Shown: in pieces, positions 4,960-22,672 of the stretch | How the letters are laid out: the number at the start of each line of letters is the position of its first letter | Numbering within the stretch: the stretch's first letter is position 1 | Assembly: GCA_000442015.1 (NCBI GenBank) | Contig: KE560949.1 | Span: 62,001 to 88,834, forward strand | Direction: 5' to 3' | Origin: Rozella allomycis CSF55 | Lineage: Eukaryota | Length of the DNA: 26,834 nucleotides | Program-made: the position numbers and the translations under genes | Notes under the pieces: model-generated | The model's database searches: none | Seen by the model: only the letters and a program-made list of their open reading frames with translations | What the model was told of the DNA's origin: nothing

Positions 4960-6032
4960 TTATATTCTCAAGGAAGAATATGTCTTCATTTGCGATATAT
5001 TGCTGCCTGATGTATTTGGCTTGTATGGCAGGTTTCTCATACTGGAAATCTGATTGGGGAGCGTAGTTTCAGCGACGTATGATGGAAGTGGTGACGGAAT
5101 AGTTGGCGTAGGCACTGGATTCGGACTCAGTTGCTTTTTGGAGAGTTCGATGATCACTACAACGGCTTTTCCCGCGTCTTCACTAGTATCACATTGCTGA
5201 AAGTGTACCTGAATTCTCTTTTCGTGCGTCTATCCCGAATTGCACAATGTCGCCCGTTTTCACCTTGTATGGTCGACTCTCCGTACCAGACTCGCTCAAC
5301 CGCACACCATTCTGGAACGTGCCGCACTGACTGCCAAGATCTTTGATGAACACCTAGTACACACTTGATCGTATATTACATTGTCTCCGTCGGCCCATAT
5401 TTCGGCATGGTTTCTTGAAATCACTTTACTGCCGAAAATAATGGTCCTGTCGGGATAATTGGGGTCATGCATGCGACCGATTCTCACAGGCTGGATCAGC
5501 GCTCTTTCCTCTAGTTTTTCAGTATCGCCTTGTATTTTCAGGATTAATACGGGTATCACACCCGCCATGTCTTTTCTTGGGATCATCAGAGACATTGATA
5601 CATCAGCTGGCATGAATACAGGTAATATTGCATACCGGAGATTGCATCAATCCATTCACGGGAAGATGAAATAGATCTTGTCATAAATATCCATGTCCTC
5701 AAGCCTTCTTTATGCAGCTTCCATCCATATGAAAAATCTCTGTCATTTCTAATATCTGATGCGTGCAATGTTGAAACATCATACAATGCGACATTTATAG
5801 CGTTTCTTGGCTCTTTGTCCTAGAACATATATCAATGCAACTTACTTTTTCCGATGAATAATAATACATAATCTTATTCAGTTTGTCGTATGCTACAAAT
5901 CTAAGAACCCACCTTTTGCCATTTCGGCAAAGTTTTTCTAAATAGTCGCAAATAAATGTCGGATTTATCTAATGAATAGGTTTTGTACGTATCTACCTGG
6001 CATTCAAGAGCCGTGGGTATTTTAAAAGACAT
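4960..6032 (-). CDS. PH domain + FHA domain protein
   Basis: Five GT-AG introns. N-terminal PH-like region (YLEKLCRNGKRWVLRFVAY...MYYYSSEKDKEPRNAINV...REWIDAI), then FHA (VRIGR...SKVISRNHAEIW...VFIKDLGSQCGTFQNG...GDIVQFG), then a Pro/Ser-rich tail. Confidence 0.85.
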
Positions 6033-7317: not shown

Positions 7318-7417
7318 GCTCCCGTAGCTCAGTTGGTTAGAGCGTGATGCTTATATGGTTCCACCATGTCGAACTCAAGATACGTTGAGGCCACCGGTTC
7401 GAGCCCGGTCGGGAGCA
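7318..7417 (+). tRNA. tRNA-Ile (anticodon TAT) with 26-nt intron at 7356-7381
   Basis: Acceptor stem GCTCCCG/CGGGAGC plus discriminator A. D-arm GCTC-AGTTGGTTA-GAGC. Anticodon loop CT-TAT-A|intron|A. T-arm ACCGG-TTCGAGC-CCGGT. T-rich run downstream. Confidence 0.9.
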
Positions 7418-7676
7418 TTCTTTTCTCAATTTTGCTAATTGCATTTTTCCAAATCACTAACAATAATGCTATTCAATGGCATTCAATTTTCAAAAACGAT
7501 TGTAGAGGCTATAATGTNTTTTGTACTAGATCAGTACGATGAAAGTTACAACAGAGACTTCATTGACCCTATTTGTGGTAAATATCAACCTCCCTCGTAC
7601 GGATCTACCTCTTTTTCGGTTAAGTAGACCATTTTGCATTGGGGAAATAGAAACGCATGTATTTAAATGCACTTAG
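7366..7676 (+). CDS. Possible small spliced protein of unknown function (start and frame uncertain)
   Basis: A typical 28-nt GT-AG intron candidate at 7502-7529 and a + strand AATAAA at 7708-7713. Two open spliced readings: ATG 7366 to TAG 7627 (77 aa) or ATG 7466 to TAG 7676 (about 60 aa). Confidence 0.3.
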
Positions 7677-7740: not shown

Positions 7741-10700
7741 TTAATATATTGAGTAGGATAGTTCATTTTCTTGAGTCTCTATAAAGCATAATGCCTCCTT
7801 ACAGTTGCAATCGTTGACTTTCATTTTTTGTATCACCGTTTCTAACCTTTTAATTAAATTGAAATGTGCAGATTTTCTTGTTCCCATTGAATTTTGATAG
7901 CCATATATTGCTATTCTTACAAACAAAAATAAATTCTATTACACAGTGAAAATGTTCTTTTGAACATTAAATTGTATATTTTTCTTTTGTTTTATTACAC
8001 TATATGCATATTCTATAGATTCAAATAACGCCTTAAAAATGAAGTCTGTATTACAATCTTTATAGACTCGCTTGTTTAATTCCTTAAGGTACAAGTGGAG
8101 TTTTAAACCACACAAGTAAAAATTGAGGTATAAATTTAGGAGCATAATGTTTAAGCTATTCAATTCAGGATCAAAATATAGGGGATGTAGCTTAGACTTT
8201 AGAAACCAATTGTTTTTTGATAAAATATTTTACTGTTTCAATTTGGTTTTAAGTTTTTCTCCAAAATGGTTTCCACATTCGACCGTAAGTGTATCTGCAA
8301 TGTTGAAGCCAACAAATTTAGAATAATCACAAATTACTTCTAAGTTCCTGCAATTTATCTGTAACCCACACCAAGGAAAACCTTTAATAGAATTTGAAAT
8401 AATTTCATACATTCATTTTCAATCACGGAGCACTTCAATTCTGATGATTTATAGTTAACGTAGGTTTTCATTTCCTGGATAAAGCAATTGTATCCAGGAA
8501 AACCTTTTTCTAATCTTTGAACAAATTTATCAACAATATCTTTATCTAGGGAAACGCATATAAAGTCATCAACGTATCGCATGACGAGGCAATTTTTATT
8601 GGCTATAAAATAACTTAAATGCTCTCTGTCCATTGAACCATAGAATAAAGAACACATTAAAGTTGACAAAATGGATCCTTGAGGAACACCGCACTTTTGT
8701 TCATAATAATCTTTGCCAATCTATTAACACATATTGAATTTGTTACCTTTACTAAATTATGTTTCAAATGATTTTCCAAAAGATTCAACAGGGATTCTTT
8801 ATCTTCAATAGGATGTGCAACTTGATCAACAATAATAGCGTTTGATAATTCATTAAACTCCTTGTTAACGAATGCATCGAAAACAGATTTGCAAGCAATA
8901 TCGTCAGCCTCTCTGAAGAATTTGCGTTTGATTTTATCAAAAGATTTACAAACCATAAAATATCTTCTGATCAAATAATAGTCATCATTCAATAATCTAC
9001 TGATGATAGGCAGCAATTTATCGCAGGGAATCGAGTCAAAGCAAGCTCGTACATCTAACTTGGCCATATAAAAACGTTTAAACGTCACAGATTGACAATT
9101 ATTATCATGAAATTTTCTTACTTTGGATCAATCTTACATGAATGAGCAAAGGCTTTCAATCTATCATGTATATCAGACAAACCTAGCACCGAAACTCCAA
9201 GAGACTCTTGTTTCTGAACATTATAAAACATAGTTAATCTTACTTTTTCTTTTAGCAACACACAAAATAGATTTTGAAGCATTGAATTAATCGACATTCC
9301 ATGCGGATTTAATGGATGTTTGTTTGCTATTTCCTTGCAAAGAATTGGCTATTATATGTATACCAAGGGTATTGCGTTCTTCCTTTTAAGATTAACTATT
9401 GGGCGCATCCCGTTTTCTTTAGGTAACAATCTCATAAATGAAAAACCAAGCGTCCTGTTGGCCATGGTGGTCAACGCTTGTTTCTAATCATTTAAAATAT
9501 GAATAGTTACTGTTCGTACAGGCTGATAAAGATCGTTTATGATATTTTCTAACACAGGATTCGACAAGGCAATCCAGACATCGTGTCGAAAATAGAATAT
9601 TCTATGTCGATATGACGTTGTTTCAGTGACATAGAAATGTCCCTTTCATACACGCTTAAATAATTTACTCTGATTAGTGGAATAATAAAGCCATTAAAGA
9701 TCCATTTGAGTAGATTGTGAACAAGTTTTGTGGCACAAGATATTTCTGTCTTTGAGTATTTTGATTTCTCACTAAAGAGCCATTTAAATTCTTTTATTTT
9801 TATCCCTTGCATTATTTCATGCATATCAATAGTCTCCCGTCTTCGTAATGAGACAAAAGTAGAAATCTTTTTGAATAAAACTTTCTTATTGTGTTCTCCT
9901 GTTAATTCAGATGGAATAATCTTCTGATAAACACATATTAAAAATCGAACGACCTTGTTTTCCAATAAATACACATTGTACTTTTTCATAAGGGGTATGT
10001 TCGTTGTTTATTATTGGACAGTATTCATTGAGTAATGGATATGTGTTAGTTTTAGAGGCCTTTATTAGGATTTTTTTAAAGTATTCTGTGCCCTTTTTCA
10101 TCATATTGTTTAGTTTTTTGCACATGAAAACTTGGTTGAGCATAAAATCGATTTCATCGTAATTTGAACAATTAAAAATGTCTATTCAGGCAGCTTGAAT
10201 TATATTACGAGTTTGAGGAAACCCAAAAAGTGGGACATTTTTGTTCAAGAAGGCTGGCCTGGCATAGTAAATCCTGGATCTCTCGATATCTGAATTAGCT
10301 TGATTTTCTTTTTTCGCCTCAACTGGCGGCCCTGTAATTTGGATATAAGCATCTTTCTCTGAGATCTTTCGAAATAGAAATGACTTTGTCAATAATGTAA
10401 TGTAGGGTTCCTCCCCGTATTGTTGGACAAAATTATGCCAAAAAGGTAAAAGCATCATATTTACCAGAGTGTTCGGATTTGTATTTTCTAAAAGCATTTC
10501 AAAGTTCAATGAAGAGCTCTTATCATGACCAGACGATGTGATAATACCTTTTTGAATCCAAGTGTTATTAAATTCTTAGTTCCCTTATTTATTTCTTCCA
10601 GAATACAATTCACAAGCAAATCTTTAAGGGGTATCTTTGATGATTTTATATTCATGTGTGTCAAATTGCCGTACTCTTCTTTTCGTATCACAATCTTGAA

Positions 10701-10796
10701 CTCTTTTGCAAATTCATTATTTGAATATAAGTTGAAAACTTGGGTAAAATCTATAATAACAAACTCTGTTGAATTAAATATAGCTTCCAAAATCAT
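7741..10796 (-). CDS. TERT: Telomerase reverse transcriptase
   Basis: Twelve predicted introns. Motifs in order: GQ (NLITLGF), CP (YPLLNEYCP), T (FYVTETTSYRHRIFYFRHDVW), 1/2 (MRLLPKENGMRPIVN), A (KLDVRACFDSIP), B' (GVPQGSILST), C (MRYVDDFI), E (FPWCGL), CTE (KLHPLYFDPELNS). Two junctions need non-canonical solutions (see findings). Confidence 0.95.
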
Positions 10797-10811
10797 TTAT
10801 AGTTTGCCTTT

Positions 10812-10819
10812 GAAATTTC
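10812..10819. promoter_or_regulatory. Palindromic GAAATTTC element in the 28-bp TERT/CPR divergent spacer
   Basis: The same 8-mer lies 4-7 nt upstream of ATGs at 7246-7253, 13013-13020 and 17026-17033. Confidence 0.6.
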
Positions 10820-10824
10820 CGACC

Positions 10825-12942
10825 ATGTTTGCCGTTTTCGACGTTTGGGATTTTTTAATCCTGTTAGCATTAGCTATTGGATCTTTCTTGTATTTTAAAG
10901 GAAAAGACTTTACATTTTTTTCTAAAACGCGTGAAGTTGAAAAGGACACAACGCCAGTTCAGCAGGTTTCGGCATATATCAATACAAGAAACTTTGTTGA
11001 AAAAATGATTTTAAATAATAAGCATGTTATTATTTTCTATGGATCTCAAACTGGAACAGCTGAAGATTATGCAAATGGCTTGGCCAAGGAACTACAAGAA
11101 TATGGATTGGAGTCGATTGCTGCTGATCTCGATGATTATGATATGGATAATTTGAATAGTCTACCGAGTGATAGATTTGTCATTTTTCTTCTGGCTACCT
11201 ACGGCGAAGGCGAGCCCACTGACAATGCCGCTGCTTTCTATTCTGGGTTAATGGAAAGCAATGAAAATTTGGAAAATGTTCATTTTGCCTTGTTTGGTCT
11301 AGGAAATACAACATATGAACATTATAACAAAGTTGGAAATGACGTTTTTGACAAACTAGTTAAATTGAACGCCGCTCCATTAATTGAGAAAGGCTTAGGC
11401 GATGCTGATAAATCGTAATCTTTATACTGAATTGTTTTATTAGAATGGAGGAAGACTTTTTAACTTGGAAGGAAACCCTGATTCCGGAGCTGTGCATATT
11501 TTTCAAAATCCCGCCAATTAAAAAGAACAGAAAGTAAATTTATGTTTTTAAGATCCTAAAGAGAGTGTATTTACAAATTAATAGAACTCGATTTTACAGA
11601 CATAAAACCCAAAACTAGATGGGGTAGCAAAAAGTAAAAGGTTTTAAAATGCTTAATTAGCCCAAACGTTTATGATGCGAATAATCCATATTATACCAAA
11701 ATTGTTGGCTACAAAAATTTGACGCCCTATGCTGATAGAGTTTGCATGAAAATTGACCTCCAAATCGAAAAAGATTTGGCATACCAAACTGGAGATCATT
11801 TAGGTGTATTACCTGAGAACGATCCCGATAAAGTTCTATTGTTAGCCACCTTGTTAGGAATTTGTGAAAAACTGGATGAAATGTTCAATTTAATTCCAGT
11901 GGACCCTTCATCTAAAAAGTCTATTTTTCCTTGCCCAACTACTCATAGAATCGCATTAACAAATTTCATTGATATTTTAGCCATTCCAAAAACAAGCACC
12001 GTTGCATTATTGGCAGATTACGCGGAAAATGAAGGTGAAAAAGACCATTTATTAAGTTTGATTGGTACAACAAACAAGGAGAGATATTACGATTACATTA
12101 TCAACCCTTGTAGAACAATCATCAATATTTTACAAGAACATTCTTCGATCAAAATACCAGTGAATGTTCTATATGAATCATTACCGAAACTTCAAGTTAG
12201 ATATTATTCAATATCTTCGTCGTCTTTAGTAAAATAGTTTTAATCAAAGTAAAGATTTCACCTGAGACTGTATCAATTACAGCTGTGCGGCTCGAATACA
12301 AAACCACGTTAGGGGCAATTAGAAAGGGAATTGCAACACACTTTCTTTTCAATAAATCGCAAGAATTAAACTCGGGAATTCCAGTCTTTATTAGAAAATC
12401 AAACTTTAGATTACCAAAGAATCCTCAATTACCTGTGATTATGATAGGGCCTGGAACTGGAATAGCTCCATTCTTTGCGTTTATTCAAGAACGAGCATTT
12501 AAGAAGAGTAACGGTAACTAAAAGCATATCTCTCTATTAGGACAACCAATTGGACCAACAGTTCTTTATTTTGGTTGTAGAAACGAATCAAGAGATTTCA
12601 TGTATAAAGACGAATTGACTACATACGTAGAATCAGGGTTACTTACTCTGCACACAGCGTTCTCCAGAGACCAAGTACTTTGTTTTCATTATGCTTATTT
12701 AGGAAAAGAAAATATATGTCCAAAATAGGTTGCTCGAAAATGGCCAAGAGATGTATGAATTGGTCAATAACAAAAACGCGGTGATATATGTTTGCGGAGA
12801 TGCCAAGAATATGGCGAGAGAAGTGAACAAGGCTTGGTGTGATATTTTTGAAAAGCACGGTTCAATGTCACAACAACAAGCTGTTGACAAAGTTAAACAA
12901 TTACGCTCTAAAGGTCGATATTTAGAGGATATTTGGAGTTGA
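10825..12942 (+). CDS. NCP1: NADPH-cytochrome P450 reductase
   Basis: N-terminal membrane anchor. FMN motifs YGSQTGTAE, ATYGEGEPTDNA, FGLGNTTYEHYN. FAD/NADPH motifs RYYSISSS, MIGPGTGIAPF, YFGCR, YVCGDAKNMA. Ends DIWS*. Six GT-AG introns. Confidence 0.96.
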
Positions 12943-13026
12943 ATAATAAAATAGATTATTGTCAAATGTTCATTTATCAATTTTAAGTTATTGTAGTCGG
13001 ATTGCGAAAGACGAAATTTCTGGTTT

Positions 13027-14515
<1,489 letters not shown>

Positions 14516-14594
14516 TCATTAAATATAAATCTAATAAACCTTTTATACATTTAGTGTTGAAATTGTTCACGCCCAAATCCCAGCCACCAAAAAA

Positions 14595-15785
14595 ATGAAT
14601 TATCTAACGCCTTTTCAGAAAGGCCTACTGGCATTATTCCTTGTTGTATTCTTAGAAAGCGCTTCAGACTTTCTTATTCAAGTAATTTTCAGGCCTATAT
14701 TTTATGCTTAGCACTTTCAACGCGAAGCTGTAAAGATTGAGCATACCAATCGATCATTCATGTCTACATATTTCGCCATGTTCGTTTTACAATTTTATTT
14801 ACCTATGTTTTACTTTGGGTAAGCTATTTTGACTATTCGTGACACAGAAAATCAGTTAAGCAATGCTATGGTCAAAAACCTGAGTGTGTCGTTTCTTCAA
14901 CTAAAACAAACTCTGTATATTCTGACAAAGAAAAAGAAAAATCTCTTCGAACTGAGGAAACTGAAAGTTGTAAGAATAGTGACCATGGTCCGTATACATT
15001 TAACAAGGTAAAAGAATGTGATTTGAAAAATGTAGACATTCAAAATATCTATTTTATTTGGCTTTCTGTACTTTATTGAAATGTATTTTGATACATTCTC
15101 GCTGTGCTCTATATCTGTCGCATCTAGCTCAATCCTCAGCAACATGTCATCTATCTTTACTCTAATCCTGTCCATCCCTTTGAAAATTGAAAGGGCTACG
15201 TTTTTTAAAGTGATTGCCGCGATAATTACAATTGCTAGTGCAGGATTACTGTGCCTTGATACTGAAAGCAATCACCCAATGGGAATTATATTTGCGTTAC
15301 TTTGTGCATTTGCTTTTAGTTGTTATTCAGTTCTTTTGAGAAAATTGGCACCCCAAGAAGACAGATTAAATACTGTATTGTTATTTGGCTTGGTTGGTGT
15401 GATTAATTTGCTTACCCTGTGGCCATTTATGTTTATTTTACATTACATGGGAGTTGAAACACTGGAAATACCCCCTAAATCTGTTATGATTGAATTAATT
15501 CTGACTCATGTCATTTGTACATTTCCTCAAGTCTATTTCTTGATCTATGCCCAGAAACGAACGTCACCTGTAGTAGTCTCGATTGGCATGGGAATGAGTA
15601 TTCCTTTATCCATTGTTGGAAACATATTGATTAATAATGAATTTCCTACACCCATGATGTTAATATCTGGTATATGCGCATTAGTTGGCTTTGTGTTTGT
15701 TAATTTGGCTGAATTTAAACCAAAGTGGGATGAAATAATCCAGTCCCGGATTACGTCTTTTTTCCACAAGAATTTTTGCCGGTAG
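14595..15785 (+). CDS. Drug/metabolite transporter superfamily (EamA / SLC35F-like) membrane protein
   Basis: ATG 14595 and three GT-AG introns join to ORF 15081-15785. Many TM helices. Motifs SVASSSILSNMSSIFTL, GIIFALLCAFAFSCYSVLL, LFGLVGVINLLTLWP, TSPVVVSIGMGMSIPLS. Confidence 0.85.
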
Positions 15786-15866
15786 CGTTCCTTCAAGCCT
15801 GGAATATGCTGATGCAAATAAACTTAATATTTTAGTATTTGAAAATAAGAGAAGCACCGATTTTAT

Positions 15867-16788
15867 TTAAAACAATTTATCTAGAGCCTTCTTAGACACT
15901 TCGACACCAAAGAAACAAGCAGCATTGGCAGGGAACGCTCTGATCATGGCTGGACCTAATCCTCTAAATAGGGCGCCTGGGCCTTCATTTTTGACAAGCT
16001 TAGAAAACACATCAACTGCTCCTGTGTACATGCCCTCTGGTGCTGACTGTAATCTTGATTTAACAACATCTGCAGGTATTGCTACCGCCCAGTTAGCTAT
16101 TCCGGCTGCACCTCCTGCAAACAAAACTGCCATCGAATTCAATTGGTCAGGAGTGGATCCAGCTGGAGTTAATAATTTTTTTGTTATTTCATACGCGCCA
16201 AAATAGGCGACTGATCCTGGAATATCTCTTGCTAAAGTTGCACCAGTTCCCCTAAAGATTGATCTCATACCACCCTCCTTGTATAATTTAGCTGCAGCAT
16301 CGATAGGCCCAGAATATAGCTTTTCCTTTCCTGCACCTTGTGTCTGCAAAAGCACTTTAATTCTTTCCGATGGCGCCATTAGGGCAGTAGCAGGAATTGC
16401 GGAAAATCCACCCGCAAATAGAATTTGAGACATCGCTAATGGCTCATCTGGTCCACTTCTCCATAAAGTTTTGGCGATGGATTTGCCAAGATCATATCCC
16501 CAAAAGCATATTGCAAATATCGGTGTGACCTATGTCATATTATTGAGCATTAGTTACTCCAACAAGAGGGGTGGCCATTCCTCTGTATAATCCTTTTATG
16601 CCTTCTTTTGCAAATATAGTTTTAACCGCATTGAACAAACCTGTGTATTCTTTAGATGTTTGGAGACGAACTTTGATCAAATCAAATGGATGACCAACAA
16701 AAACAAGACACATGCCTCCAAATCCGCCAGATAAGAAACTTTTGATACTTTGATATTTGTTGACCTTGGCTGATTCAGTGTCCGACAT
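15867..16788 (-). CDS. CRC1: Mitochondrial carnitine/acylcarnitine carrier (SLC25A20-like)
   Basis: Three carrier signatures ([33 protein letters not shown]), plus [16 protein letters not shown] and [10 protein letters not shown]. One 28-nt intron. Confidence 0.9.
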
Positions 16789-17037
16789 TGCTTACCAGGG
16801 TATTTCCATGTGAAATATTTAAAATATGTCTCATGTGAACGTGTAGGATATCTCTTTCAGTTTAGTTATAAATTCAAACTCGTTTTACACTTAATTTACA
16901 CCTTAATCAATATTATATTTTCTGTCAAGCAAATTCGCAATTTATTTCTACGAGTCTATTTACTAGTATTATTTGGCGCGTCAGCAATTAATTTCTCCCT
17001 AAATGATGGTGAGATATGAGAAATCGAAATTTCTAAA

Positions 17038-19312
17038 ATGCCTGTCCATCATTTAGATTTTTTTCTTGCCGAAATAAGAGTTATACATAATGATAAACTC
17101 TCTTCTATTGAAGGAATAAGACTTGGAATTGATGCTCAATATTGGTTACGTCGTATAGTTGGAAGAGAAGCGTACCATACGATGATGGGAGGTGCTCCCT
17201 GGGACTTTAGAGCACACATAGAAAAAGAAATTAATATTCTAAAGTAAATTTTTAGTCTATAATTGTTAAAGAAAATTAAAAATCACGCCAGTTTTTGTAT
17301 TTCCGGGGTTGTCGTTGTGTGTTAAAGGGAGCAAGCCAAAATTTCCTAATGACAAGGAGCGAATGGAAAAACGGGAGGCTGCTTGGAATCTTTATGAGAA
17401 CGGAGAAGTTGATAAAGCATTGAATCTATTTTCGTCGACATCCAGTATCTATAATTTTCATGAATAATATAGATGGCCAAAGTAATGAAATGATGATGCA
17501 ACACTTGATGCTTATTTTAAGAGAATTGAATGTTGAATTTATGAGAGCTCCATATTCGTCGTTGGCTCAATTGGCATACTTTGCTTCCAGTGAAATCAAT
17601 TACGTACATTTAGTTTTCGCTCCTTCTGATATTCTACTGTATCAAGTAGAGAGAGTGATAATTGCTCTTGATTGCGACAAAGATGTTTGCAATTGGGTTG
17701 ACAAGGAGCAATTGTTGCATGAAATCCAGTTAGACGAAGATCAATTTTTAGATTTTTGTTTATTGGCTGGATATGAAGACTGCCCAACCTTTCCTCCTTT
17801 TGCTGAGACCCCTGGATCTTTCAATATAAAGTCCGTATTTGAGATTTTCAAGCAATATGGCTCTGGATCATATATTATTTCTAGTTATTACGATCACCCT
17901 AAAGTCAAGGAGATTAACTATGGAGATATATTCGCGAGATCTAAATGTTACGTAAAACATCATTTAATCATGGATGAAAATGCAAGTGTGCAGCCCCTCG
18001 ACATGGACACATCTCCTTCGTAAAAATGAATTTTATTGATTATAGCGACTTACATGAAATAATAGGAAGTCAATTACCACAAGTTGTTTATTTTCTTTTG
18101 TCTCTTGGCTATCTTTCTCCTCATACGATCAATGGTCTTTTAAGTGGAAACTTTATGGAATATCGACCCTTGTGTGGTGGGAATACCAAGGAATACAAAA
18201 ATTTCTTGAGAGATCACATAGCTACTTACACTCAAACTTTGAATTATTTGACCCATACTTTGCACGGGTACTTTAGAAATTCTAAAGTGGTAAGAGGTAC
18301 CTTAAATCACTATTAGAATGTTTCATATTGGTTTGATTATGAACACAAGCTAAAGGTCCCATTGGAGCACAACTTTAGCCCCTCGCTTTACGAGTCTCTA
18401 AATTGGATTGTTCCACATGACTTTCGACATTTCATTCATCAACTTAACGTAAATAATTTTCTATTTATTAATAAGCAAAACAAGACTGATTTATTTGCTT
18501 GTTTAAGGTTCCTTCGCATATCCCCTGAAAGTGGGTATAGAACCAGGGGTTTGTTGTCGAATTCGCCATTAACAACGAAAGATGAAGTTTTGGCATCAAT
18601 TTTTTGGAGATTTTTGGAGTTGAGAAATTTTATTGACACTGAACACATCTTGACATTTAACGGTACTGCATTGTCTACCTTGGAAACCTTACATCAAGAA
18701 GAAATACTATTAGCTGTTGAACTGATGAAGTCCAAGTTACTTCATGGTAGACCGTTTTCCAATGAAATCTTAGAATTGGAATCTAAAGAAGATGTCTACA
18801 TTCGCTTGATATCCAGAGCTTGTTGTTTACTTCATCCAATTTCCAAGTTGGACTCCCAGTGGAATGGTAAAGTTGATAGGTACTTGTTGCCTTTTGTTTC
18901 ATGCATCAATTCTTTGAAAAGCTCTTTTAGAGGTTTAATGGATGCAATACTAGTTAGTCTTGCCTATCACGACCACTTAGAACTTACTCCTACTCAATTT
19001 CATGATATTTTAACCTCTATGCCATTTTCAATTCAATCTTCCTCGGCTCTTGGCTGTCTTTGCTCACGTTTCCTTCAATTATACAAACTCGAGTCTGGAC
19101 CAAAAATATTCAAAACTCTTTCATCAGAGTACACTGGTTGGGGTAACGTTGCAATGGACCTTAAAGTCTGTATGGAATTCTTTGATCAAGTAACTGCCGT
19201 TGTTAAATTTATTTATCAAAACTTTCGCGGGATTCCCGAGGCTGTCTATAATGAATTCTCTGAAGCCAATGATTGGCTTCAAGGACCAAAAAAATTACTT
19301 TTAAATATATAA
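17038..19312 (+). CDS. MKT1: Mkt1-like XPG/PIN-fold post-transcriptional regulator
   Basis: RLGIDAQYWL, ITPVFVFPG, VEFMRAPYSSLAQLAYF, FLDFCLLAG, PSDLHEIIGSQLP, IFWRFLELRNFI, LISRACC. About five GT-AG introns. Confidence 0.85.
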
Positions 19313-19460
19313 AGCGCTATTTTGTTCCTTTTTATTTTAAATTTGTTCCTGTTCTAGTATTTGTTGATTGGGCGGCTTAGTTACGGGAATCGCCCGACAT
19401 TGTTTAGTCGCATTGTAAAATTAAACCTTGATTGTAATCACTAGTCATTATAATAAAACA

Positions 19461-20631
19461 ATGGGTATTTGTGCTAGCAAAGAAGATCAAGAGAACAAAC
19501 GCAAAAATGAAGAGATTGAGAATCAATTAAAAAATGAACAATTAAAAGCCAGCAAGGAAGTAAAGATGCTTTTATTGGGTAAGATGGTCTTGATTGATTA
19601 ATATAGGTGCTGGTGAATCCGGCAAGAGTACTATTCTTAAACAGATGAAATACATTTATGATGGTGGTTACAATGAAGACGAGAAAGATTCTTTCAAAGA
19701 AATTATCTTCTCTAACACAGTTCAGTCCATGAGAGTTATCCTGGAGGCTATGGATCGATTATCAATTCCACTAGGAGATTCAGGCAACCAAAAGTTTAAG
19801 GATGTCCTTTTTGCTCTTCCAAGTCAAATCGAGAGTGAAAGTTTTCCAAAAGACGCCGCTGAAGCCATTAAGGCTTTATGGGCGGATACTGGAGTACAGG
19901 AAGCCTTCCGTCGCTCCTCTGAGTATCAATTGAATGACTCTGCCAAATAGTAACCGTAATTTTTTTACTTAAGCAGCTACTTTGAGTCTATAGATCGTAT
20001 TTCAGATCCTACGTACAAACCAACAGACCAGGATGTTCTTCGTTCTCGTGTCAAGACCACAGGTATCACAGAAAGCACTTTTACAATTGGTGATTTAACA
20101 TACAAGTATATTTATTGGGTGTTATTTTTAGGTTATTTGATGTTGGTGGTCAAAGGTCTGAACGAAAGAAATGGATTCATTGTTTTGAAAACGTTACTGC
20201 TATTGTTTTCTTAGTGGCCATTTCTGAATATGACCAGAAGTTGGTCGAAGATGAGTCTGTCAATCGAATGAATGAGGCCTTGACGTTGTTTGACTCTATT
20301 TGTAATAGCAGATGGTTCGTCAAAACCTCCATCATCTTGTTTTTAAATAAGATTGATAGATTCAAAGATAAAATACTTGTTTCTCCCATCGAAGCTACAT
20401 TTCCAGAATATACCGGTAAAATTATACCAGTGGCTACAAATAGGTGGTACTGACTTTGATTCAGCGTGCAAGTTCTTTTCAGACAAGTTTACATCTTTGA
20501 ATCAATCAGAAACAAAGCAGATTTACGTCCACTTTACTTGTGCTACTGATACTAACCAAATTAAGTTTGTTATGGCTGCGGTTAATGATATTATCATTCA
20601 AGCTAATCTACGTGACTGTGGTCTCCTTTAA
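19461..20631 (+). CDS. Heterotrimeric G protein alpha subunit, Gi-like (fungal group I)
   Basis: MGIC myristoylation/palmitoylation start, [45 protein letters not shown], ending DCGLL*. Four GT-AG introns. Confidence 0.96.
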
Positions 20632-20725
20632 AACGTCAATAAATCAGCTTCTTTTCTTTGACAAGATATCATTTACCTTTTTCGAATACCTAAAAGTTGT
20701 AGACATACATTTTTTGATCTCGGCT

Positions 20726-20738
20726 GTTGCCTAGATAC
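20726..20738. promoter_or_regulatory. X-box-like motif GTTGCCTAGATAC
   Basis: Perfect GTTGCC half-site plus degenerate second half, 10 nt upstream of ATG 20749. Confidence 0.4.
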
Positions 20739-20748
20739 TTTCAAAGGA

Positions 20749-22672
20749 ATGCATGCCATCGAATCCAACTTCAGCAGTACAAATAATGTCGACGCAAACA
20801 GCAACGAAGATGTTAAGCAAAGTGATATTAATCCGTTAAACTCGTTATTGCGCAAAGATATTTTAGATACGTTTTGGACATACAAAGAAAAGACAAAATC
20901 AATTCTTTTTGATAACCCAATGGAGGTTTCTGAATACTTTCCAATGATGAAATACATGACTGGCGCTACCAAAAGGGAAAATCTTATTGTCGAAAAAACC
21001 TTGGACGATCTCGATCATTTGCCGGCTATTCAAAATAATCATTTTATTACCAGCAAGGTCAAAAACTCTACAGAAACGCCCTTGTTGAATTTATATAATA
21101 ACTACAGGCGAGAAGATATAAATAAGTTAAGAGTTAACCGAAAGTCTGAGAAAACACACGCAATGCCCTTGGAAAACAATAAGTTTCAACAAGAAGTCAA
21201 TCAAGTTCAACCCAAGAATTGGTCCGAACTACACAATATGATGGGTAATTGTATTTAGGGCGTAAGAAAGATCAGGCAAAAGCTTTCAAATTCGATAAGA
21301 CAACAGATATTGAGTTTGATGGAGTTGTGGAAAATACAAGGAGGAAGGATAACCGGAGTAATAAAAGAAAAGAGGAAATTGATATAACTATGAATATAAC
21401 CAACCAAAAGTACGACAATGAAATAAGCAAAGTATTGATGAAGCAAAAAAAGGTTATGACAATGACGGAAGAAATTAGATCCCTCATAAAGGATTTGCAA
21501 TCCAACGAAAGCATGAAATTTGCTTTTTATGAGGGGATTGGTAGAATATTATTTGCAATTAGTAGTTAAGAACATCGAAAGAAACTGCAGATGGCTAAAG
21601 AGAAGTACAATTTTGTTTCATCAAATAAATCGATAAGAAATGACAAATTGGAAAAAATAAAGGAATCAGTAACAATATTAGTATTATATTTTTGGCAATT
21701 CTGCATGAAGAAAAATTAGACAAAATATTGAAGACTAAAAGAATTATAGAAGCTGATAGGCTAGAAAAAATCCTTAAATCATTGAAAAAGAAAGGAACCA
21801 AAGTAATGCGTTATAAATATCGGCTATATAGCTTTACATAGTTCAAATGAAGGATACAGAAAACGACATCTTCAACAAACGACAGAAATGGTCTTGTCTA
21901 ATTAAGCTATTTGCAAGACTACAGGAATTAAAGAATAATCAAAAGGTATATCTATATATTTTCTTGCATCGAAGGCCAATCAAGTTGAACTCAAAGAGAG
22001 GCAAACTCAAAAATGGGCTATTGATATGATCCAATCATTTTATCTCAAACATCATAAAGAAATAGGAGAGAAAAGATATCAAGTATCTCTAGCCGCTCTA
22101 AAAAAGTATAATTTATCATGCGATGAATATAGGGTTCTACCGCCTTACGTCCACTGTTGGGTAAAAAACCGTCAAGACCAGGCCTCTTCCATCATTCAAA
22201 AATTCGTTCGTGACAATGTTGATATGGCTTCAATTATGAGACTGTCAAAAACATTTTTGTTATCAGGTAATCAAACTATACGCAACTTTATTTAAAGTCC
22301 TCAAAATTCAAAAAGTTTACCGCGATTATTCAGAGTTTATTAACGCACAAGTTATTCTAATTGCTTATCAATTTGAAAAGTACAAAAAGCAAAAGATTAT
22401 TGACTCTTTAAAGAAGCCTACTCAAGAAGAAATTAACACTATAAAAAATTTGACTACTTTTAATGGTGTGATTTTCACTGATGATATTGAAAAAACTGAT
22501 AAAAAATTGGACCAGATTGAGTTATTTTTAAGAAAAAGAAGGCATAAACATCTTCAATCTCCTAACAAAACTGGAAAACGACACAAAGTACTAACCACTT
22601 CATTTGTAATAACATTAGATACTTTTACTCAAATCCGAGCTTGAAGAGCTAGAAAAACGGATATTGGATTGA
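20749..22672 (+). CDS. Coiled-coil protein with IQ-like motifs, unknown function
   Basis: The ORF fragments join through about nine 26-33 nt introns (one GT-TG) to TGA 22670-22672, followed by AATAAA. IQ-like segments IDMIQSFY, SIIQKFVR, LKIQKVYR. Confidence 0.7.

Follow-up and report, generated by a model that had tools for sequence, protein, structure and literature searches.

Three short segments in the genome of the rozellid parasite Rozella allomycis CSF55, each starting with GTAA and ending with TTG, are on our reading of the sequence rather likely to be ordinary U2-type tiny introns that carry a UUG 3' splice site instead of the usual (U/A)AG. They lie in a stretch of 26,834 nucleotides (assembly GCA_000442015.1, contig KE560949.1, positions 62,001 to 88,834), hereafter the window, in which two of them (J1 and J2) interrupt the gene for telomerase reverse transcriptase (TERT) and the third (J3) an orphan gene, here called gene 3. 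Putative GU...UUG introns probably account for about 5% of the junctions in the window (3/62). J2 is the strongest of the three cases, and UG splicing is quite probable there. J1 and J3 are supported less firmly, and the chances that UG splicing operates at all three junctions together are about even.

Intron structure and the three GT...TTG segments

Gene models were built by chaining open frames through candidate introns and were checked against conserved proteins where possible (e.g. VPS4). Permissive chaining, with introns of 15-60 nt, gave many spurious introns and was set aside. The curated set contains 59 canonical introns, all of which are GT-AG and measure between 24 and 31 nt with a mode of 26 (24 nt, 2 introns; 26 nt, 17; 27 nt, 8; 28 nt, 13; 29 nt, 11; 30 nt, 4; 31 nt, 4). 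The donor is GTA in 58/59 and GTT in 1/59, and GTAAA, GTAAG, GTAAT or GTAAC starts 39 of the 58 introns that were tabulated. At position -3 these 58 have T (31), A (24) or C (3); the 59th ends in TAG. The GC content is 24% in intron interiors (base frequencies of T 0.414 and G 0.127), on average 27% in whole introns, and 37% in exons. A Gibbs-type motif search of the 59 introns revealed no positionally fixed branch motif, the only signal being a weak TT-N-A pattern at scattered positions. The sole canonical intron with a GTT donor, 14002-14028 (+), belongs to VPS4, where the conserved protein sequence fixes both of its sides. A canonical-looking 30-nt TERT intron at 9214-9243 (-) is in frame and stop-free and hence invisible to the logic of open reading frames (ORFs) alone; other stop-free introns with lengths divisible by three, non-AG ones included, may be hidden in the window.

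Under a strict chaining rule, which admits only GTA...AG introns of 22-36 nt, the models of TERT and gene 3 break at exactly J1, J2 and J3 (Table 1). The one further break, in VPS4, is accounted for by its GTT donor. The three segments had been proposed in an initial annotation made from the sequence, and are present in the window exactly as written there; its total of about 70 junctions was too high, the count being 59 canonical introns plus these three, or 62.

Table 1. Positions of the three segments, of competing GT-AG cuts and of the genes that contain them
Feature	Position (strand)	Length	Location or type	Sequence	Remarks
J1	9096-9121 (-)	26 nt	TERT	GTAAGAAAATTTCATGATAATAATTG	GTAAGA...AATTG
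J2	8207-8233 (-)	27 nt	TERT, phase 2	GTAAAATATTTTATCAAAAAACAATTG	GTAAAA...AATTG
J3	21669-21694 (+)	26 nt	gene 3, orphan coiled-coil/IQ-like gene	GTAACAATATTAGTATTATATTTTTG	GTAACA...TTTTTG
J1 alternative	9121-9137 (-)	17 nt	GT-AG	GTAAGATTGATCCAAAG	restores frame
J3 alternative	21669-21733 (+)	65 nt	GT-AG		same donor as J3
J3 alternative	21681-21733 (+)	53 nt	GT-AG		
TERT gene	7939-10796 (-)	coding sequence 2553 nt, 850 codons			9 canonical and 2 GT...TG introns; single terminal stop
Last TERT exon	7942-8205 (-)		C-terminal extension		Pfam PF21399 TERT_C, E 2.2e-08, 34.9 bits vs cut-off 27
Gene 3	20749-22672 (+)	573 codons			8 exons; single terminal stop; holds J3

For each junction all stop-free, frame-restoring excisions of 10-70 nt were enumerated. 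None of the three has a GT-AG excision of 24-31 nt, which upholds the earlier statement that a frame-restoring AG is missing at the normal distance, and among the GT-started cuts of 24-31 nt the proposed one is in each case the only option that ends in G. That the TTG cut repairs the frame also stands, with the proviso that the initial annotation overlooked GT-AG alternatives outside the normal range. These are a 17-nt and two 62-nt options at J1, the latter of which would remove upstream TERT exon sequence, and one of 53 nt and two of 65 nt at J3. As a control, the same enumeration was applied to the 46 of the 59 canonical introns that could be tested (a unique frame in the 48 nt to either side). 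Of these, 18/46 have unused GT-AG alternatives of 10-23 nt beside them, and 39/46 have ones of 32-70 nt. Since similar unused alternatives are this common beside canonical introns, those at J1 and J3 are what chance gives and are no evidence against the UG reading.

The three segments resemble the canonical introns in donor consensus and length and differ from them in lacking the 3' AG. Their removal opens the reading frame in every case, giving 850 codons in TERT and 573 in gene 3, and their GC content (0.15-0.19) compares with a mean of 0.27 in canonical introns and 0.37 in exons. AG occurs within the segments only at positions 4-5 in J1 and at positions 12-13 in J3, and not at all in J2. 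The next AG downstream lies 10 nt behind J2, 16 nt behind J3 and more than 30 nt behind J1, so that the total lengths to the nearest downstream AG would be 37 nt, 42 nt and beyond 50 nt, respectively. Sliding the cut by one base (TA...GG) leaves the mRNA the same at J2 and J3 and is impossible at J1. The chance that all three end in TTG was calculated by hand at about 3e-4 (p ~0.022 per trinucleotide, with up to three lengths per junction). U12-type introns are marked by a long conserved donor (ATATCC type) or by AT-AC ends; the donors here are GTAAGA, GTAAAA and GTAACA, and such AT-AC excisions as the enumeration found have no U12-type donor and would delete coding sequence. Nor do the segments resemble the mammalian situation of a minor TG beside a competing AG, as there is no frame-restoring AG at 24-31 nt.

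A splicing route can be outlined on this basis. With a GUAA donor and a length of 26-27 nt as in the other introns, and no AG at 24-31 nt from the donor, the spliceosome would cut after UUG, and would do so efficiently. The second catalytic step would use the G placed where AG normally sits, tolerating U at -2, possibly because a constraint on length or reach in an intron of 24-31 nt leaves no other candidate. The initial annotation went further and supposed that the 3' site is picked mainly by its distance from the donor. The 24-31 nt range fits this proposal, but the canonical intron 5178-5208 (-), as placed by reading frame only, apparently passes over an AG at 26 nt and uses the one at 31 nt, and the skipped AG seems to point to a rule relative to the branch site. 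We propose tentatively, and with slightly less than even confidence, that the R. allomycis spliceosome as a whole is relaxed at -2, exon ligation taking a G within reach after either A or U, such that some 1 in 20 introns would be constitutively GU...UUG and gene models would be systematically wrong at those places.

Evidence at the individual junctions

Contigs from two other studies (X1 and X2) cover J1, J2 and J3, with word depths of ~240-530 in their bins. Comparisons with them refer to the listed differences from the window, none of which touches the TTG of J1 or J2 or is an indel at J3; the TTG form is thus present in other DNA data sets. The TTG of J1 and J2, unchanged as far as listed, supports the earlier judgement that independent sequencing errors are unlikely. 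The junctions lie outside the cover of a further run, X6.

At J2 an in-frame TAA follows directly on the G of the donor. When the segment is translated by read-through, the TERT_C match starts right behind it, and the alignment with the human TERT chains 7qxa_A, 7trd_A and 7bg9_A runs from motif E into the C-terminal extension and is interrupted only once within query residues 1-100, by a gap that faces the 27 nt of J2 and is exactly 9 residues long. No GT-AG, GC-AG or AT-AC excision of 10-70 nt restores the frame according to the enumeration. The next AGs give cuts of 37 and 43 nt, both out of frame, and after the 37-nt cut the frame hits a stop within about a dozen codons, ahead of TERT_C. 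The composition of the segment is intron-like (GC 0.15, +2.4 bits). The X2 contigs carry J2 in a 28-nt version, with one extra base in the A run at full contig depth, which is absent from X1. The difference between 27 and 28 nt is harmless only if the whole segment is removed. All three segments behave like introns that would have to leave the mRNA, and J2 does so most clearly. At the level of the DNA and its predicted protein it is established that in the window exactly 27 nt must be removed here.

At J1 the upstream TERT exons are in a different frame from the exon that carries reverse transcriptase (RT) motif A, and the frame is repaired by either the 26-nt GT...TG or the 17-nt GT-AG segment. 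The former has the modal length, the same TTG end as J2 and J3, and an intron-like composition (GC 0.19, +2.2 bits). The latter is 7 nt under the minimum of the 59 canonical introns and is not intron-like (GC 0.35, -0.2 bits). Between 7900 and 9941 the window and the X1/X2 contigs show 15 listed differences in TERT, of which 6 fall in 221 intronic nt and 9 in 1782 exonic nt. The 26-nt segment holds two of them, as do each of two canonical TERT introns, and one further difference falls in the 17-nt segment. The exonic differences between the haplotypes are at third codon positions in 8/9 and synonymous in 6/9 of those listed. As these are mostly third-position and synonymous, TERT is, to judge from the substitutions, under purifying selection and not a pseudogene. 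In a wider comparison the X1/X2 contigs are ~0.8% different from the window in TERT and at most 0.1% in the long contigs between 11777 and 19694, and between 7900 and 11800 there are several places with two co-existing contig forms, among them a deletion of 18 nt at 10950 that part of the depth carries. The pattern is suggestive of haplotypes or strains that have diverged.

The evidence at J3 comes from codon usage, by which the exons flanking the segment are coding. Continued beyond the J3 donor, the frame has noncoding-like codon usage (-2.9 bits in 16 codons) and stops at 21717. Exon 4 (21695-21802), which follows J3, scores +9.1 bits over 36 codons or +0.253 bits per codon, which compares with 0.248 +/- 0.128 for in-frame chunks of 36 codons (n=107), -0.73 for out-of-frame sequence and -1.09 to +0.02 for four intergenic controls. 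Because exon 4 contains no ATG it must join an upstream exon. The J3 segment itself has a GC content of 0.15 and is intron-like by +4.1 bits. An intron of 53 or 65 nt would delete the first 13 codons of exon 4, which score +3.9 bits in frame; with a noncoding-like model 32% of the trials contain no stop, and +3.9 bits is attained in 6.6% of the stop-free ones.

Alternative explanations

A number of observations weigh against UG splicing at these places. Frame-restoring GT-AG alternatives exist both at J1 (17 nt) and at J3 (53 and 65 nt), and gene 3 has no informative homologue by which J3 might be fixed, its only other hit being a repeat protein, P0003. The piece upstream of J1 gave no TERT hit, and the exon downstream of it aligns to solved human TERT structures only from motif A on, so that homology does not decide this junction. 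The codon scores of the short segments at J1 and J2 are all about +2 bits and hence uninformative, which tells at J1, and the allele evidence for J1 is weak, the likelihood ratio estimated by hand being only ~1 to 3.5. Counted by hand, some differences fall outside those listed, 1 in the X1 and 4 in the X2 contigs over TERT, and 2 and 4, without position, in those over J3. No RNA run was among those listed as containing the stretch, and the metatranscriptome X8 gave only foreign fragments, which lie on conserved domains and are less than 95% identical. Elsewhere, acceptors of the UG type are very rare; in Ganoderma lingzhi GT-TG accounts for 22 of 92,108 junctions, as summed from Table 1 of PMC11590231. 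Lastly, two of the three cases are in a single gene, and could reflect something particular to TERT.

With these points in mind it might be supposed, although we regard it as unlikely, that only J2 is odd, that J1 is a 17-nt and J3 a 53- or 65-nt GT-AG intron, and that there is no recurrent UG class. Stop-free, frame-restoring GT-AG segments are indeed present at 9121-9137, 21669-21733 and 21681-21733, AG is otherwise invariant (59/59 introns), and homology fixes neither J1 nor J3. Each of these introns would, however, fall outside the 24-31 nt that holds for all 59 canonical introns, and unused GT-AG alternatives of the same kind are common beside canonical introns (18/46 and 39/46). At J1 it is the 26-nt segment that is intron-like (+2.2 bits) and not the 17-nt one (-0.2 bits), while at J3 the 13 codons that would be lost with the longer introns look coding. 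Moreover, the GTAA start and TTG end that J1 and J3 share with J2, at a length of 26 nt, would be left unaccounted for.

That nothing is removed by UG splicing, the J2 stop being read through and J1 and J3 being passed by -1 frameshifts, or the products being truncated or non-functional, seems to us quite improbable. In its favour, the public gene models either end at these sites or skip them, and some Euplotes ciliates have TERT genes that depend on a programmed frameshift. Recoding would nevertheless require three different events and leave the shared GTAA...TTG structure of 26-27 nt unaccounted for. It implies a translated segment of frame-keeping length, but J2 exists with both 27 and 28 nt, and under read-through the 28-nt form in X2 would shift the frame of TERT_C; the 9 residues encoded by J2 have no counterpart in human TERT, and codon usage past the J3 donor is noncoding-like. 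Non-functional alleles are at odds with the purifying selection on TERT (8/9 of the listed exonic differences at third positions, 6/9 synonymous). Finally, an error of assembly or sequencing that turned a true TAG into TTG is very improbable. The N at 7518 does mark the window as a draft, yet the X1/X2 contigs, which differ from the window nearby, have no change at the TTG of J1 or J2 among the differences listed, and it is implausible that A-to-T errors arose three times independently at one and the same position of the intron.

Gene models, gene content and known systems

The public protein models of the two genes differ from ours. The TERT model P0001 (665 amino acids) is mis-spliced and aligns with our 850-residue model over residues 1-762 of the latter. 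Shortly before J1 it skips to a point well inside the next exon, losing RT motif A, and its end at the TAA of J2 leaves it without the C-terminal extension. It departs from our model at two more places: near 10.4 kb it leaves out an in-frame stretch of 99 nt, and near 9.35 kb it uses another intron. The gene 3 model P0002 (244 amino acids, 21847-22672 (+), on a 3059-bp contig) starts at an internal methionine and skips ~330 upstream codons with good codon usage; it also revealed one more canonical intron, of 31 nt, at 22588-22618. The insistence of gene predictors on AG has left at least two window genes with public models that are truncated or mis-spliced, and comparisons of gene content based on this proteome may carry such errors on.

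The window contains ~13 tightly packed genes on both strands, including those for a proteasome ATPase, a TBC-domain protein, TERT, a cytochrome-P450-reductase-like protein, VPS4, a mitochondrial carrier, a G-alpha subunit and a proline-rich PH-domain protein. It is nuclear DNA of R. allomycis, since the exon beside J1 matches the R. allomycis telomerase RNA-binding-domain protein at 99% identity. In a protein search with this exon the annotated model was the only match among longer proteins, and there was none among proteins of similar length. The standard genetic code fits the window. A ciliate code (TAA/TAG = Gln) was rejected, as there is no in-frame TAA or TAG in the confident TERT exons and the gene ends in TAA TAG. 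No relative of the TERT exon was found in metagenome contigs. The G-alpha exon matched 80 loci at 62-71% identity, and none of the three inspected was a close relative, two (L001 and L003) being intronless and the third (L002) having ordinary exon spacing. At 7318-7417 (+) there is an Rfam tRNA match of 52 bits; since it spans 100 nt against the 71 positions of the model, the tRNA probably holds an intron of ~29 nt. ARAGORN reported no tRNA in the window. The single N lies in the spacer between this tRNA and the 3' end of TERT.

Few signals in eukaryotic genes vary as little as the AG of the 3' splice site, and GT-TG junctions are, to our knowledge, on record only as rare events that are mostly alternative. 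In the 2007 survey of Szafranski et al. they were reportedly, in the main, alternative sites in long introns with an AG close by. U2-dependent GT-TG introns are described from the mammalian genes GNAS and TSPYL2 (PMC4176328). The Rozella segments share with these the U2-like GT donor and a 3' end in which TG replaces AG. The mammalian ones are rare, whereas in the window 3/62 junctions are of this kind, with no AG nearby and at lengths of 26-27 nt, and here the UG cut appears to be the only one yielding the conserved protein. GT-TG junctions with RNA support are also reported from a fungus, G. lingzhi (PMC11590231), at a share of ~0.02% (22/92,108 in its Table 1) against ~5% (3/62) here, the latter in one window and known from DNA alone.

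Introns that are very short and vary very little in length occur in other lineages as well, including the ciliates Paramecium and Nyctotherus (~25 bp; PMC5014332), nucleomorphs (PMC6009652) and myxozoans (PMC13644364), as described in those sources. The range in the Rozella window (24-31 nt, 59/59) is comparable and suggests a physical constraint of the spliceosome on intron length. Unlike those genomes, that of Rozella belongs to a fungus-related parasite with a standard genetic code. No report of Rozella intron size, tiny introns or UG acceptors turned up among the papers covered by our literature search. What is new here is that a rare junction type, GT-TG, is apparently required and recurrent (3/62), and occurs in introns of 26 nt.

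Rozella is the sister group of the Microsporidia, whose splicing is heavily reduced. If RNA confirms the three junctions, the splicing machinery of Rozella tolerates a signal that is almost never used in other organisms. Leaky UG sites could keep TERT low. A lineage with ~5% UG-dependent introns would be a natural experiment on site recognition in the second step of splicing. It would bear on whether extreme intron shortening exchanges sequence recognition for geometry, and would touch upon the origin of the reduction of splicing in the Microsporidia.

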